Sequence record: MN342150
DNA length: 64,000 nucleotides
Reading direction: 5' to 3' (one strand)
DNA from: Escherichia phage vB_EcoM_3HA11
Below are positions 44,075-51,410 of this stretch, piece after piece; the first letter of the stretch is position 1, and every line of letters begins with the position of its first letter. Both the position numbers and the translations under genes were made by a program. The notes below the pieces were generated by a model. That model saw only the letters and a list, made by a program, of their open reading frames with translations, was not told where the DNA came from and ran no database searches.

Positions 44075-44695
44075 ATGGCTATGTATTTGCAGGGGAAGTA
44101 TGTTCCCGTAAATCCCAAGAAATATAAAGGCGACGTGAACAAAATAGTATTTCGTTCTTCGCTAGAACTTGTCGCCTTTAAATTTTGTGATATGAATCCT
44201 GCTATCGTCTATTGGTCTTCAGAAGAAACTGTAATCCCTTACATATCTCCGGTTGATGGTCGCGCCCATCGTTATTTCATGGATTTGAAGGTTTGGACTC
44301 GTCGGCAGGATTCCGATGAATTACAAATTACTCTTATTGAAATAAAACCCAAAGACCAGATTAAAGAACCTCGCAAAACTAAAACGATGAAGGAATCAAC
44401 ATTCAATAATTCAATGCGCACTTGGTTGGTAAATCAGGCAAAGTGGACAGCAACTAAAGAACATTGCGCGAAGGTAGGTTGGAAATTCATTATCTGGACA
44501 GAAGAACATTTGGTGCCAGGTGAAGACCCAGAAGTTAAAAAACAATTTGCTCTTCGTTCTAAGAAAAAGCGCGAAGTCGAAATGGAAGATCGACGCCGCG
44601 CTCAAAGGATTAATGCGTTGAAAGAGCAAATGAAGAAGGAAACTGCTAATAAACAACCAACGCAATTGAAAGATGATGGTTTGTTATTACCCTGA
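44075..44695 (+). CDS. PD-(D/E)xK-like protein (possibly head-completion-type nuclease fold) with basic C-terminal tail
   Basis: YFMDLKV ... LIEIKPK resembles the D...E-x-K core. Confidence 0.4.
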   Translation: MAMYLQGKYVPVNPKKYKGDVNKIVFRSSLELVAFKFCDMNPAIVYWSSEETVIPYISPVDGRAHRYFMDLKVWTRRQDSDELQITLIEIKPKDQIKEPRKTKTMKESTFNNSMRTWLVNQAKWTATKEHCAKVGWKFIIWTEEHLVPGEDPEVKKQFALRSKKKREVEMEDRRRAQRINALKEQMKKETANKQPTQLKDDGLLLP

Positions 44696-45314: not shown

Positions 45315-45836
45315 TTAATTCCTTACTTTGTCAGGATTAGATAATATTTGTTCGTATCCGACTTCTCCTTGATAGTCGAAAACATGCTGAAGAATCGCCA
45401 TATCGTCTACCATCCGATAAACTTCAATTCCAGCGTTCATCAATTTTTTGATTCCATCCATAATACGATATGGCTCACGATAATATACTTTATCGATTTT
45501 ACCGCTATCTATTATCTTTTGAGTGCAATTAGGGCAAGGACTATGTGTCACAAACATAACCAACCCTGTGAAATCATCTGCATTTTCGGGGATACGCATT
45601 AGAGCATTTTCCTCCGCATGAACAACACACGGGTTTGTAACAATTTGCCCGTGTTGCTCCATCTCACAAACATTCGGCATGCCAGGAGGCGTTCCGTTCC
45701 ATCCGATAGCCACAGGCTGATCAGTTTCAGGGTTTACGATAACACAACCGACTTGCAGACGCCGAGCATAACTGGTTACACCATATGCTGCAGCTGATCG
45801 CATATGAGCAAACATCATACGTGGTTTGATAGCCAT
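45315..45836 (-). CDS. cd: dCMP deaminase
   Basis: Zinc-binding motifs VHAEENA and SPCPNC. Confidence 0.8.
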   Translation of the reverse strand: MAIKPRMMFAHMRSAAAYGVTSYARRLQVGCVIVNPETDQPVAIGWNGTPPGMPNVCEMEQHGQIVTNPCVVHAEENALMRIPENADDFTGLVMFVTHSPCPNCTQKIIDSGKIDKVYYREPYRIMDGIKKLMNAGIEVYRMVDDMAILQHVFDYQGEVGYEQILSNPDKVRN

Positions 45837-46153: not shown

Positions 46154-46215
46154 GTTTATCTCTCCCAATAAATTAAGGGGAAGTATACCTTCCCCTTCTT
46201 CAATAAAATAAATTA

Positions 46216-46566
46216 TTATTCAGTACAAGCTCGACCAAGTTCAGTCAGGCGGTAGAATGTTACTTCTGATTTCGGCCAATGCTTATACTCTTCAGAGTCA
46301 TCATGAACCATTGTAAACGCAGGTTCGATCAGACCTTTAGATAATAATGATTGCCCTGAACGTGTATCCCACGGATCACCTTTTACAGAACGAAACCCAC
46401 CAGCAATCGGAGGGGTATGGAATGTCCATACTGTCTTGCCCTTTTCATTCGTCCAAGACTTCGGATTGAAATACCAATGACAAAGGCGTCTGGCTTCACC
46501 CTTTTCAAAATTTAACATTCCTAAAAGGACGCAGAGTTGATGTCCTGTGATTCTTGGCTTTTTCAT
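46216..46566 (-). CDS. hypothetical protein
   Basis: ORF. Confidence 0.4.
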   Translation of the reverse strand: MKKPRITGHQLCVLLGMLNFEKGEARRLCHWYFNPKSWTNEKGKTVWTFHTPPIAGGFRSVKGDPWDTRSGQSLLSKGLIEPAFTMVHDDSEEYKHWPKSEVTFYRLTELGRACTE

Positions 46567-46895
46567 AAGATCCCCAAGTCAGTAAGGTAACGATAAGACA
46601 GGACTACAGATAGAAATCCAATTAACGCCCAAGACGACAGAATAGGCTTGCAATTTAGCGTAGTCTTTCCATTGGGTATGTTGGGACTTCCAGTAATAAC
46701 AACCGAATCCGTTTCAGCTCTCAGTGTCATGACAGAACCCATGAGAATGATTGGGCGCACATAATATCCTTCATTATTGCGCTTTACGATACATGGTGAA
46801 GAAAATCGCAGGAACGGATCACCGCTTTTATAACCGAATAACTCGACCTTTTCTATTTCTTCGGGTACTTTCTGACCAGGAAAGAATATTTTCAT
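46563..46895 (-). CDS. hypothetical protein
   Basis: ORF, ATGA overlaps with neighbours. Confidence 0.4.
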
Positions 46896-47470
46896 AATGC
46901 AATTCCTAAATTTGTGTATAACAACTCAGCCAGGGTGACAGGACGCTTGAATTGTTCCCAACTGCAGTTCAGGTATTCGCGCTCTTCGCGAATATTTTCG
47001 TGAAGATGGCCATGGATATTATACGCCCAACGGTCTAATTGATAAGGAACATGTGTTGTCAACACACGGCCAACAGGCGTGTCACGTTCGTACATAGCGC
47101 CGAAGGAGCTAATCCAGCCGTCCATATACAAAGACAACAGCATCTTAAAGCTGTCGTGGTTGCCCTGTGCCACCCTGATGATAAAGTTCGGACGCCAGTC
47201 ATCGGGGACGGGGCGTCGCTTAAACTCATCAATGTTTCGCTTGGCACCCTCCCGCATCAGGCGAATGAACCCTTCAGCCCCGATGAAGCATATATCACCA
47301 GCCAGTTCAAGGACGTCCCGAGACTTCAGCCCCTGGAAGATCGTGTCGATAACCGCAGCGTCATGCGCTTCCTGTGTATCAAATCCACGCGGTTTAAAGA
47401 CCTTCTTATGCCCAAGGTGAGTGTCACCAAGGTACTTTACGATTCCCGCCATTATGGTTTCCTCAGCCAT
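46892..47470 (-). CDS. calcineurin-like metallophosphoesterase
   Basis: Motifs GDTHLG, GNHD and GHLH. Confidence 0.6.
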
Positions 47471-47793
47471 TCTAAAATTGGTACGTTCACAAACCCTTTG
47501 TGCCAGCGGTGTGGGTTGTGGCCTCTGTTATGATCTAGTAAGCACGTATCGGGAGGAACACTGAAGTGAATGCCTTCGATGTCATAATAATTCCCATCAA
47601 TCAGGGTGTATACATGACCTTCAATCTGGCTATAATGGATCTCTGCTTGGGGATACACATGCTTCAGAACCAGAGCAACCTGATAGCACTTTCCGTTCTT
47701 CCCGATATACTCGACATCGACCTGTTGTGGGAACACGTCTTTGATAAGATTTATCAATCTCGTGATATCATTTACAACAACCGAACGTTTCAT
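47452..47793 (-). CDS. hypothetical protein
   Basis: ORF. Confidence 0.4.
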
Positions 47794-47795
47794 CT

Positions 47796-48458
47796 CTATG
47801 ATAACTCATGGCGGTGTCGAACACACGCAGGGCAATTACAATTCTTTTTCAAAATTGGCATTTCACACCATGTCATTAAGTCATGTATTGGGGACATGTG
47901 ATGATAGAACCAAGATTTCTTGAGACTAATCAATGGATATAAAATTTCAATAGGTCTTTCCCCGTCTCTGGTCATCATGTTGTACCCTTCAATGACTTTA
48001 TTAAAAGCGGGTATCCAGTGTATTGCGTCATCGCCGTTAACATATGCCAATATATACGTGGACGGCAAGCCCCTGCCTTTAAATTGCGTGTTTAATAACC
48101 ATATCGGGGCTTGTGCTAAACAAGCGCGAAAACCACCGTCAGGGACGTTGATGCCACTGATAGGTTCTTGATGATGTGTCCAACGATACATAAGAAGTGG
48201 GGCATTTTTATTAATCCAGTTGTGAATTTTATTCCTCGCCCAATTTTCGCGTTTAGATTTGCATTTATTATTTTCGAGGTGGCAATACACAGTATGAACT
48301 GAATATCCTTTCGATAACAACCAAATCAACATGTATGTGCTATCCACCCCACCAGACCAGAACAACGTCACTTCTTGATTATTCTCCGGCAATGGAGCAT
48401 CCCCTTGAAGAACACGGTATACAAAATCACAATCAGATATTGAGACAACAATTTCCAT
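47796..48458 (-). CDS. queC: QueC-like PP-loop ATPase (7-cyano-7-deazaguanine synthase family, putative)
   Basis: PP-loop SGGVDST near the N-terminus and a C-terminal Cys cluster C-x8-C-N-C-P-A-C as in QueC zinc sites; 220 aa. Confidence 0.55.
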   Translation of the reverse strand: MEIVVSISDCDFVYRVLQGDAPLPENNQEVTLFWSGGVDSTYMLIWLLSKGYSVHTVYCHLENNKCKSKRENWARNKIHNWINKNAPLLMYRWTHHQEPISGINVPDGGFRACLAQAPIWLLNTQFKGRGLPSTYILAYVNGDDAIHWIPAFNKVIEGYNMMTRDGERPIEILYPLISLKKSWFYHHMSPIHDLMTWCEMPILKKNCNCPACVRHRHELS

Positions 48459-48534
48459 TAAAATATTCCTCTTAAAGAATCATTTGTTGTGCGCCATAAA
48501 GATATGATGGTGCAATGATAATACATTATACAAA

Positions 48535-48560
48535 TAGAAAAGCCCCTTTCGGGGCTTATT
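48535..48560 (-). terminator. rho-independent terminator on minus strand (AGCCCCGAAAGGGGCT plus T run)
   Basis: Hairpin just downstream of the 48556..48846 gene. Confidence 0.5.
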
Positions 48561-49555: not shown

Positions 49556-49892
49556 CAGTTTCCCCTGCTTTCTCTAAAAGGAGTTTCAAAGGATATGTCC
49601 CACAAGCGGTGGCATACTCGACTTTGAAATATGAATTATCGTTCATGGCGAAATTTCGATGTGGGAAATATTCCCCGTCATCCAACCCGCCTAATCCCCC
49701 GCCGACGCGATATTGTTTCAACTCAACTTCGCCGCCATAACGGAGTTGGGCATATAGGCCGATAGGAGCGCGAACGTAATTCTCCAGCCATACCCAATTT
49801 CCATCGTGTAAACGTGTAGGGATAAATGCAAAACGCACCTTGGGATGAAGAACGGCTTTGGCGAGCATCTCTTCTGTTATTTCACGTTTCAT
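49548..49892 (-). CDS. hypothetical protein
   Basis: ORF. Confidence 0.4.
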   Translation of the reverse strand: MKREITEEMLAKAVLHPKVRFAFIPTRLHDGNWVWLENYVRAPIGLYAQLRYGGEVELKQYRVGGGLGGLDDGEYFPHRNFAMNDNSYFKVEYATACGTYPLKLLLEKAGETDV

Positions 49893-50509
49893 CCAATACC
49901 TTCCTCTTCGATAATATCTTCTTCACTAGCGACGACAGAGATTCCGTAGTCTACCATCTGGGAAAGTTCTTGTAAATCTTGTTCAAACCCGTCACCCTGT
50001 CGGATATAAAAGACGGGTACGACACGACGCCTGGTATCTTCGAAGATAGTCTCCGCGATTTTATTAATCTGGCTCACTACATGAAACAGTTTCAAACCAC
50101 CGATACCACAGCCGATGGCGGGTAAACCGACATAGACTGTTTCGTCGGTTTTTGCCTCAATGATATCGTGAACTTGTTCAAACATAATCTGAACTGAACT
50201 GATAATGGAAGGCATGCGTGCGTTAGGACCAGGATAGAACTGAGTGTACAAATTGAATCCCCAGACACCCGTGTCATGATCAAACGCATAGGACATGTTC
50301 CCCAAACGTTGTTCCGGACCACGTTCATCTAATTGGTCGGCTCGGTAAATTTCTGGGAAATCCAATCGAACATGGTTGGCGATACCTGCGCCCATCACAG
50401 ACCAACAATTTGCGCCATGAGCAAAGGCATTGATGAGATTGAAACTCGTGGCAGCTTTCAGTAAATCGCCGTTTGTGATAACATATGTGGTCATGCGTAA
50501 CGTCTCCAT
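49889..50509 (-). CDS. macro-domain protein (putative ADP-ribose binding/hydrolase)
   Basis: NAFAHGAN...MGAGIA and LPAIGCGIGG resemble the macro-domain NAAN...GGGV and PAI(S/G)TG signatures. Confidence 0.5.
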   Translation of the reverse strand: METLRMTTYVITNGDLLKAATSFNLINAFAHGANCWSVMGAGIANHVRLDFPEIYRADQLDERGPEQRLGNMSYAFDHDTGVWGFNLYTQFYPGPNARMPSIISSVQIMFEQVHDIIEAKTDETVYVGLPAIGCGIGGLKLFHVVSQINKIAETIFEDTRRRVVPVFYIRQGDGFEQDLQELSQMVDYGISVVASEEDIIEEEGIG

Positions 50510-50996: not shown

Positions 50997-51410
50997 TCAA
51001 TAGAGGTCTTCGGAAAAGAGTTCACGGAAAGGAGTGTTCTTCAAACGAACTTGATTAGTTTGTCCGGCTTCACGGGCGACCACAGCGGCCTCTTCACGGG
51101 ACATCCATTGCCCATAGTTATCAATAAAACCTTGTTCACGAGTGTGAGTGGTTTCGATAATACCTGCTTCTTTCAATCGTTTGAGTTGCGCGTTCATCAA
51201 TTTGTCGTGATGTCGAGCGCTTACAACGATCACATCACCATATTTGTTGGCAGCAGCCACAACACGCCGATCAAACTTGGTTGGGTCAGGTATATCACGA
51301 GCATACAAGGCGATGTGAGTGTCGTCCACGTCCCCTTTCACTTCAGAGTATAACTGACACCCATTAGGAGATCCAGTAGGTAAAGAACGAAAATATCCAA
51401 GTAATTTCAT
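50997..51410 (-). CDS. hypothetical protein
   Basis: ORF. Confidence 0.4.
   Translation of the reverse strand: MKLLGYFRSLPTGSPNGCQLYSEVKGDVDDTHIALYARDIPDPTKFDRRVVAAANKYGDVIVVSARHHDKLMNAQLKRLKEAGIIETTHTREQGFIDNYGQWMSREEAAVVAREAGQTNQVRLKNTPFRELFSEDLY

Follow-up and report, generated by a model that had tools for sequence, protein, structure and literature searches.

The window analysed in this study, a stretch of 64,000 nucleotides from Escherichia phage vB_EcoM_3HA11 (sequence record MN342150), carries at positions 47796..48458 of the minus strand an open reading frame (ORF) that starts with ATG and encodes a PP-loop protein of 220 amino acids (aa). The ORF listing reproduces exactly the frame in which a first-pass annotation, made from the sequence alone, had seen a stand-alone relative of QueC, the enzyme that makes preQ0, and a possible link to 7-deazaguanine. 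We consider it probable, without being certain, that this protein represents a distinct phage-borne branch of the QueC superfamily, which acts on a different, non-deazaguanine substrate, has no role in 7-deazaguanine modification of DNA and is not needed for synthesis of the thymidine hypermodification 5-NeOmdU. The ORF is a real, conserved phage gene, as follows from its conservation in phage records (at least 195, with 54-99% aa identity), from a match of the PHROG 1550 profile over its full length (E 6.3e-80, aa 1-219) and from residues that stay invariant in a divergent alignment of the family.

Profile comparisons place the protein in the QueC superfamily

Taken alone, the PP-loop protein scores 24.9 bits with Pfam QueC (PF06508; gathering score 22), and this match covers aa 33-64 only, with Pfam ThiI and MnmA almost as good. 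TIGR00364, the NCBI equivalog profile for QueC, gives 18.5 bits against a cut-off of 150.3 and is likewise confined to the PP-loop. The single protein had no significant match among the PDB sequences, and a family profile was needed to reach QueC and Cap9. Since a word-indexed homologue search returned close relatives only (at least 53% identity), an exhaustive search was used instead, in which a profile of the close relatives was run against 1.84 billion representative proteins. At E<=1e-3 it retrieved 1149 proteins (representative clusters), of which 478 also passed E<=1e-10. The majority are 180-300 aa long and were matched over their full length. The divergent alignment used below, designated A2, contains 61 family members with a mean column identity of 25%; all 61 match PHROG 1550, and 58 match Pfam QueC weakly, at best with E 4e-12.

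Comparison of A2 with E. coli QueC by HHalign yielded a probability of 93.9 and E 1.6e-7 over 186 columns including the cysteine cluster. In hmmsearch against the PDB, the best matches of the family profile among solved structures were QueC and Cap9, again with the cysteine cluster included: B. subtilis QueC (3bl5; E 7.6e-11, residues 1-206), Cap9 (E 2.2e-8) and Pectobacterium QueC (E 5e-8) were all matched over the full length. The likeness to QueC claimed by the first-pass annotation is therefore borne out at the level of the family. The annotation had also named a better match to a different PP-loop family, for example TilS or MnmA, as the outcome that would speak against it. These two were matched at the PP-loop only, with E 0.015 for TilS (1ni5) and E 0.9 for MnmA (2der), as compared to 7.6e-11 for QueC, and all matches to TilS, MnmA, ThiI, TtuA, LarE and argininosuccinate synthase were of this P-loop-only kind (E 8e-3 to 0.9). 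The full-length matches to QueC and Cap9 therefore place the protein, within the PP-loop superfamily, on the QueC branch. Judged by these profiles it is a member of the QueC superfamily in the broad sense (PF06508), and it is not a QueC orthologue.

The Rossmann-like alpha/beta fold common to QueC, ThiI, TtuA, TilS and GMP synthase is also predicted for the phage protein, and in its AlphaFold2 (AF2) model a strand at aa 29-33 precedes the SGGVDS sequence at aa 35-40. A structure search in BFVD returned the same phage family, with the Muddy protein S5XYN6 among the structural neighbours. PHROG 1550 is already annotated, its members appear as 'QueC-like' in RefSeq, and the oddity of the group has been known since 2019. 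The full RefSeq label, 'QueC-like queuosine biosynthesis', misleads toward Kutterviruses that make 7-deazaguanine; it should be read as a superfamily assignment only.

ATP-site motifs are kept and the predicted deazaguanine contacts are replaced

Canonical QueC is characterized by the motifs SGGxDS, YxQxHxxE, VPxRN and YPDC, by residue K165 and by the cysteine motif C(x)8CxxCxxC (Libby et al. 2026, PMC13329287), and mutagenesis of E. coli QueC showed that Y35, R99, Y131 and Y189 are essential (PMC13329287). Cap9, which provides the only ligand-bound structure of the family, contacts the deazaguanine through R86, Y115 and D117, located in its RN and YxDC motifs, with R86 stacking on the base.

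Both elements on which the first-pass annotation relied are present in the phage protein. The PP-loop, SGGVDST, a pyrophosphate-binding motif, can be read directly from the sequence at aa 35-41 (48336..48356; minus strand, as all features of the gene). The C-terminal cysteine cluster, CE-x7-C-x-C-xx-C (CEMPILKKNCNCPAC; 47823..47867), comprises C198, C207, C209 and C212, which align with the cysteines of the QueC/Cap9 zinc site. QueC C188 corresponds to C198 and Y189 to E199 (HHalign), i.e. a glutamate stands in place of the essential tyrosine, and the Kuttervirus spacing, C-x8-C-x-C-xx-C, is one residue shorter than C-x8-C-xx-C-xx-C of QueC; confidence of the structural model is low at this site. 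QueC K165 is matched by K181 and P159-L160 by P175-L176 (HHalign), so that the PLxxxxK signature is retained. QueC D127 pairs with D143 or D144, depending on the method. Invariant in A2 are G37, D39, S40, E71, Y139, D143, K181 and three of the four cysteines, while S35 and G36 are conserved to at least 90%.

The remaining QueC motifs have given way to segments specific to the family. In place of YxQxHxxE the phage protein has NN-xx-K-xx-RE at aa 63-71 (48246..48272), in which E71 is invariant and N63/N64 are near-invariant; in the profile alignment to the PDB, QueC Y35 corresponds to L61, Q37 to N63 and E42 probably to E71. VPxRN is represented by LxQxPxW at aa 114-120 (48099..48119), from which the essential arginine is gone, QueC R99 falling on Q116 or A117 depending on the method. 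At aa 141-145 (48024..48038) stands the sequence NGDDA, with the invariant D143, and a short loop takes the place of SGYPDC of QueC; Y131 is matched within one position by an aromatic residue, W148, D133 by a hydrophobic residue, and the YPDC loop is shorter in the phage protein.

As the registers of these loops vary between alignment methods, we added an alignment-free motif count, comparing 168 family members with 120 enterobacterial QueC proteins. The QueC set is low in diversity, since the E. coli QueC query gave only enterobacterial sequences of at least 81% identity. SGGxDS was present in 152 of the 168 phage proteins and in all 120 QueC proteins, and the four-cysteine motif in 156 and 119, respectively. 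YxQxHxxE was found in none of the phage proteins and in every QueC; PxRN occurred in three phage proteins, again as compared to 120/120, and YPD[CN] in none, as compared to 117/120. Conversely, 'CE' at the first cysteine is a property of 153/168 family members and of no QueC. The motifs that the family has for its own are NN-xx-K-xx-RE, LxQxPxW and (N/D)DDA.

Thus, alignments and motif counts show that the elements expected to handle ATP and to maintain the scaffold are retained (SGGxDS, the Asp that follows strand 4, the counterpart of K165 and the four-Cys site). By the same comparisons, the residues predicted to correspond to those gripping the 7-deazaguanine ring in QueC and Cap9 have given way to another set, which is conserved just as well. 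The alignment of QueC active-site residues, which the first-pass annotation had proposed as a check, comes out against a QueC assignment: Y35, R99 and Y189 are replaced and YPDC is absent, with K165 kept.

Partners and products of a 7-deazaguanine pathway

Over 4 kb around the PP-loop gene the window is 98.7% identical to the Salmonella phages SeSz-1 and UTK0005. SeSz-1 is classified as Ackermannviridae, Cvivirinae, Kuttervirus, and the window therefore belongs to a ViI-like phage. The first-pass annotation had spoken of a T4-like phage, which holds in so far as T4-like core genes (gp48, gp53, rIIA/B, DexA and topoisomerase II) appear in the SeSz-1 annotation; the phage is a Kuttervirus that shares some of these core genes and is not strictly T4-like.

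Proteins DpdA, FolE, QueD, QueE and Gat-QueC of phage 9g (NC_024146) were employed as tblastn queries. Nothing below E 0.08 was obtained in the window, in agreement with the earlier statement that QueD, QueE, FolE and DpdA are not recognisable there, and nothing below this value in the whole genome of SeSz-1, the closest relative, whose annotation lists no DpdA, FolE, QueD or QueE either. Among 79 related viral loci, searched together with 6-kb flanks, the same proteins had no match at E<=0.01. The suggestion that the partners lie elsewhere in the genome thus finds no support in the SeSz-1 genome or in the related loci. Completion of a host pathway, the second option raised at first pass, fares no better: E. 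coli has its own queC, and the search with E. coli QueC recovered a QueC from Salmonella enterica that is 94% identical. The hosts are therefore provided for, and a phage copy would be redundant.

The published chemistry of the DNA points in the same direction. DpdA is encoded by every phage known to carry 7-deazaguanine (PMC10516641). Liquid chromatography-mass spectrometry (LC-MS) of DNA from ViI, CBA120, CBA6 and 1.255.O showed as major peaks the four canonical nucleosides plus one nucleoside of 301 Da, 5-NeOmdU (PMC5889632). In the similarity networks of Hutinet et al. 2019 (PMC6884629), the singletons from the Kutterviruses SFP10 (a Salmonella phage) and ECML-4 (an Escherichia phage), from Mycobacterium phage Muddy and from Bacillus phage SP-15 remained unconnected to QueC; these QueC singletons were dropped from that analysis (PMC6884629), with the remark that they probably represent another N-type ATP pyrophosphatase subfamily (PMC6884629). 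Taken together, missing partners, replaced binding residues, the LC-MS major peaks and the position outside the QueC networks turn against the 7-deazaguanine link envisaged at first pass: the PP-loop gene is very probably no sign of 7-deazaguanine in the phage DNA and has a different job.

Relation to thymidine hypermodification

As an alternative, the first-pass annotation had considered recruitment of the enzyme to the hydroxymethyl-pyrimidine pathway. Synthesis of 5-NeOmdU has been reconstituted from three purified proteins, namely a 5-hmdU DNA kinase, gp247 as serine transferase and gp226 as pyridoxal phosphate (PLP) decarboxylase (PMC8989533), that is, with no PP-loop enzyme. On the map of phage Vi01, gp243 and gp247 are located at 149.6-152.3 kb and the PP-loop gene at 15.4-16.0 kb, which corresponds to a distance of ~22 kb on the circular map. 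Among Ackermannviridae-like phages the gp243-type kinase is far more widespread than the PP-loop gene: it was found in 349 phage records, including 19 from Dickeya, 65 from Vibrio and 45 from Klebsiella phages, as compared to 0, 6 and 7 records, respectively, for the PP-loop gene. The latter is present in jumbo phages of Ralstonia, Burkholderia, Pseudomonas and Erwinia, of which the Ralstonia and Burkholderia phages are missing from the list of kinase matches. The phyletic patterns of the two genes are decoupled, and the PP-loop gene is not needed for 5-NeOmdU hypermodification in these phages.

The family is almost confined to phages

A pattern scan of 185,579 bacterial and archaeal species genomes (one genome per species) recovered a single full-length cellular copy (L089:6896-7582), which lies on a 4.2-Mb metagenome-assembled chromosome (OW818669.1) beside two pairs of IS3-family transposase genes and a gene for a 1087-aa WD40-repeat protein, a context that is uninformative. 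The PHROG 1550 family is essentially viral and almost phage-only.

Gene context was sampled in 65 distant IMG/VR loci, made up of one large lineage and several smaller ones. The order in the largest lineage is 137-aa protein, SNF2 helicase, 120-aa protein, PP-loop protein, family-B DNA polymerase, 211-aa protein and Nudix protein, while other lineages have RecA/UvsX-like, FEN-like and DnaB-like genes 5' of the PP-loop gene. At 50% identity, the neighbours that recur in at least three lineages are dCMP deaminase, a small HAD-like phosphatase, an Arn.3-like 137-aa protein and RecA. Among individual phages, PS119XW has a dCTP deaminase and an NAD-dependent ligase near the PP-loop gene, and the Serratia phage phiMAM1 a phosphoesterase and a dCMP deaminase.

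Proposed chemistry and the points that weigh against it

Our best reading is that the protein would be an adenylate-forming ligase or amidotransferase with a non-deazaguanine substrate. The enzyme is presumably catalytically active and would keep the generic chemistry of the QueC clade: ATP would serve to adenylate the substrate at a carboxylate (or carbonyl) oxygen, with release of pyrophosphate, and an amine would then displace AMP and take up the acyl or imidoyl group, as in QueC and Cap9. The substrate would be other than 7-carboxy-7-deazaguanine (CDG). With modest confidence, a nucleotide-like small molecule appears most likely, because the gene is found recurrently among replication and nucleotide-metabolism genes; a protein N-terminus, for which Cap9 and QatC are precedents, or a nucleic-acid base would be the main alternatives. 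Of the idea at first pass that the enzyme had been recruited for another amidation, the general part, a QueC-type enzyme working on a different reaction, survives, and its placement on the hydroxymethyl-pyrimidine pathway does not.

Several points weigh against this reading. The loop alignments shift by one to a few residues between HHalign and the PDB profile search, and the AF2 model is poorest at the cysteine cluster, where the predicted local distance difference test (pLDDT) is ~60 and falls below 50 at aa 198-201, so that the zinc site is putative. The canonical QueC motifs are missing from QatC as well, for which a deazaguanine substrate has nevertheless been proposed; given this precedent, loss of the motifs makes a deazaguanine substrate less likely and, by itself, no more than that. 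The published LC-MS of ViI DNA (PMC5889632) covers major peaks only, which leaves room for a deazaguanine in traces. No neighbour is common to all lineages of the family, and the associations concern generic replication and nucleotide genes and are strong only within lineages. Finally, the proposed chemistry is deduced from conserved ATP-site and scaffold residues only.

Alternative readings

A viral counterpart of Cap9 or QatC would be an ATP-dependent ligase that joins a carboxylate compound to a protein amine, e.g. an N-terminus, and either modifies a phage protein or disturbs the QueC-family defences of the host (type IV CBASS, QatABCD). This reading, which we regard as unlikely, draws on the 120-aa protein encoded upstream of the PP-loop gene in the largest lineage. 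The N-terminus of this protein carries the conserved sequence M-(G/A)-x-Y-x-W-x-x-N-P-F-x-D, from which removal of the Met would expose Gly or Ala, reminiscent of the proteins that Cap9 and QatC target at an N-terminal glycine. However, many proteins have a small residue in second place, and the 27 examples of the 120-aa protein, being members of one homologous family, count as a single observation. The family is confined to this one uncultured lineage and is absent from the window and from Kutterviruses, and the gene unit that the PP-loop gene appears to head in Kutterviruses (see below) offers no candidate for an N-terminal-Gly target. Moreover, the Cap9 contacts to deazaguanine are not conserved, and a search of the PDB with the family profile found no QatC chain at E<=1. 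In a wider form of the idea, the family would be a viral ATP-dependent conjugating enzyme that places a carboxylate metabolite, not necessarily a deazaguanine, on a protein N-terminus or another macromolecule, in order to regulate phage replication proteins or to subvert type IV CBASS or QatABCD; argued from analogy, this is doubtful as well.

Modification of an RNA or DNA base in the manner of TilS, ThiI, MnmA or TtuA, whereby a base carbonyl would be adenylated and then substituted by N or S in a tRNA or in the phage genome, is no less doubtful. Against it, in sequence profiles these four families match at the PP-loop only, and the protein has no RNA-binding domain such as THUMP or the TilS C-terminal domain. 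Ten longer family members (300-435 aa) contain no extra Pfam domain except one weak helix-turn-helix match, i.e. no informative fusion. Isoelectric points in the family range from 4.4 to 9.7 (median 6.6); given this wide range, there is no consistent basic surface and no consistent sign of nucleic-acid binding. In addition, no tRNA gene is present in the window, and 5-NeOmdU is the sole extra major nucleoside in ViI-like DNA.

A genuine preQ0 synthase, which would convert host CDG to provide more preQ0 or queuosine for tRNA or serve a DNA modification independent of DpdA, is very improbable. The Pfam gathering score is passed, profile similarity extends over the full length including the cysteine cluster, equivalents of K165 and probably E42 are kept, and RefSeq uses the queuosine label. 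All this has to be set against the replacement of essential Y35, R99 and Y189 and the loss of YPDC, the score far below the equivalog cut-off, the failure of tblastn to find QueD, QueE, FolE or DpdA homologues in the window and the SeSz-1 genome, the QueC of the hosts, the lack of an extra major purine nucleoside in ViI-like DNA and the position of the Kuttervirus singletons outside QueC in the similarity networks. A role in hypermodification of 5-hydroxymethyl-uracil, e.g. by amidating or activating the carboxylate of O-serinyl-thymidine, is hardly credible: 5-NeOmdU is indeed made via a carboxylated intermediate, and a dCMP deaminase gene (2 kb away, same strand) and a thymidylate-synthase homologue (~20 kb away, opposite strand) are in reach, but the purified kinase, gp247 and gp226 suffice, the gp243-gp247 cluster is remote in Vi01 and the distributions of kinase and PP-loop gene are decoupled.

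Local gene arrangement

We return to the preferred reading, a phage-borne QueC relative with another substrate, and to the surroundings of its gene in the window. The ATG is preceded at a distance of 8 nt by a ribosome-binding site, AAGAGGA (48467..48473, minus strand), read from the sequence. Between the PP-loop gene and a predicted gene of 96 aa stands a perfect, GC-rich hairpin, AAGCCCC-TTTC-GGGGCTT (48540..48557, listed on the minus strand), which has T-runs on both strands, is terminator-like in both directions and would end the upstream unit just 5' of the PP-loop gene. A TATAAT box between hairpin and gene (48525..48530, minus strand) is a possible -10 element; it lacks a good -35 and was not listed by the consensus scan.

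Downstream, on the same strand, a Phage_YunG-like gene (47452..47793; 113 aa, PF24591, phrog_4814) starts 2 nt past the PP-loop stop codon and overlaps by 19 nt with a phosphoesterase gene (46892..47470; 192 aa, phrog_547), which carries a metallophosphatase label in related genomes and has a homologue of 39% identity near the PP-loop gene in phiMAM1. These are followed by a gene for a 110-aa DUF7618 protein (46563..46895), whose start and stop overlap its neighbours, and by a gene for a 116-aa protein to which no function is assigned (46216..46566; phrog_4677), the last one before another terminator-like hairpin, GC-rich and with a T-run (46175..46197, minus strand). The five same-strand genes between the two hairpins are joined by overlaps or 2-nt spacers, and from this spacing and the hairpins it appears that they form one operon headed by the PP-loop gene and closed by the second hairpin. 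In Kutterviruses the PP-loop gene would thus be first in a compact five-gene unit and tightly coupled to the YunG-like protein and the phosphoesterase. No homologues of the YunG-like, DUF7618 and 96-aa neighbours were detectable in the distant loci, and none of the YunG-like protein in phiMAM1 (L088) either. For some related genomes the alignment to this region is split into two blocks, which span ~270-370 extra bases.

Further genes of the window were noted in passing. The dCMP deaminase gene (PF00383, E 1.4e-17) lies at 45315-45836, downstream of the PP-loop gene; a deaminase (dCMP or dCTP) is also found near the PP-loop gene in locus L071. The thymidylate-synthase homologue mentioned above is known from annotation. 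A 137-aa protein is encoded at 50997-51410 and belongs to phrog_839; its phiMAM1 homologue is called Arn.3-like, and in Kutterviruses, phiMAM1 and the Pseudomonas jumbo phage PS119XW its gene and the PP-loop gene are at most a few kb apart. For the 206-aa protein at 49889-50509 no Pfam match was obtained, but phrog_335 ('phosphatase') covers its whole length (E 4.7e-74); several early-region genes between the DexA and topoisomerase genes are uncharacterised, this one among them. The gene at 44075-44695, which relatives label as head closure or head completion (gp4-like), contains a TnsA-like endonuclease N-terminal domain (PF08722, E 6e-17). Two more genes encode uncharacterised proteins, one with a DUF6527 domain and CxxC pairs (PF20137; 51414-51746), the other a membrane-flanked bacterial PH-domain protein (bPH_2, PF03703; 44906-45313).

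Two further families were seen at the distant loci. The small HAD-like phosphatase (MIIAVDFDGT...) was recorded at L011:7848-8219, L013:7893-8264, L017:7683-8054, L019:7674-8045, L020:5629-6000 and L086:1590-2075. In some Ackermannviridae loci it is encoded downstream of the PP-loop gene at a distance of 1-2 kb, in an uncultured phage directly upstream and in Ralstonia phage RSL2 4 kb off; the RSL2 record labels it 'phosphoheptose isomerase'. No ORF of the window fell in this protein cluster. The 120-aa family, without a Pfam match, is encoded directly upstream of the PP-loop gene in its large uncultured lineage (e.g. L065:5630-5992) and was noted in loci L022, L034, L040, L045-L050, L052, L055, L059-L061, L064-L066, L068, L073, L075-L080 and L084.

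Discussion and comparison with known systems

For the window taken by itself this is a modest outcome: the protein is a known unknown that the literature has flagged already, namely a divergent form of a familiar type of enzyme. A literature search for a characterised phage PP-loop or QueC-like enzyme yielded nothing beyond Hutinet et al. 2019, and in the papers searched no substrate, structure or phenotype is reported. What the analysis adds is the definition of a large, almost wholly phage-borne family (1149 representative clusters), which would combine the adenylating core of QueC with a different substrate pocket. Anti-phage immunity has recently been found to involve other relatives of QueC, which couple nucleobases to proteins; the viral branch is therefore a reasonable target in the search for a new enzymatic reaction or counter-defence mechanism.

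QueC itself (cluster 1 of PF06508; TIGR00364; PDB 3bl5 and 2pg3), which takes CDG by way of ADG to preQ0, resembles the phage protein in its size of ~220 aa, in SGGxDS, the Rossmann-like fold, the lysine (K165/K181) and the position of the four-Cys cluster, and profile similarity extends over the full length (E 1.6e-7 to 7.6e-11). It differs in that the phage protein lacks YxQxHxxE, VPxRN and YPDC, has Glu for Tyr189 and, in Kutterviruses, a cysteine spacing shorter by one; in addition, the phage gene is not linked to queD or queE, scores far under the equivalog cut-off and does not join QueC in the published similarity networks. Cap9 of type IV CBASS (PDB 9nto_B), a QueC-family deazaguanylase of protein N-termini, keeps F/YxQ(x)5E, RN and H(x)4YxDC, unlike the phage family, and shares with the phage protein only the 'CE...C..C' start and probably the Glu. 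The phage gene has no annotated CD-NTase or Cap10 neighbour, and it belongs to a phage, not to a defence operon of the host. QatC of the QatABCD system is similar in that it is a QueC-family protein that lost the canonical substrate motifs and kept SGGxDS and the Cys cluster; in contrast to the 220-aa protein among phage genes, it measures ~400 aa, has N- and C-terminal extensions and motifs of its own, and is encoded together with qatA, qatB and qatD. A further correspondence is with the QueC singletons of Hutinet et al. 2019 (SFP10, ECML-4, Muddy and SP-15): SFP10 and ECML-4 contribute Kuttervirus singletons like the gene of the window, from which they differ in nothing material.

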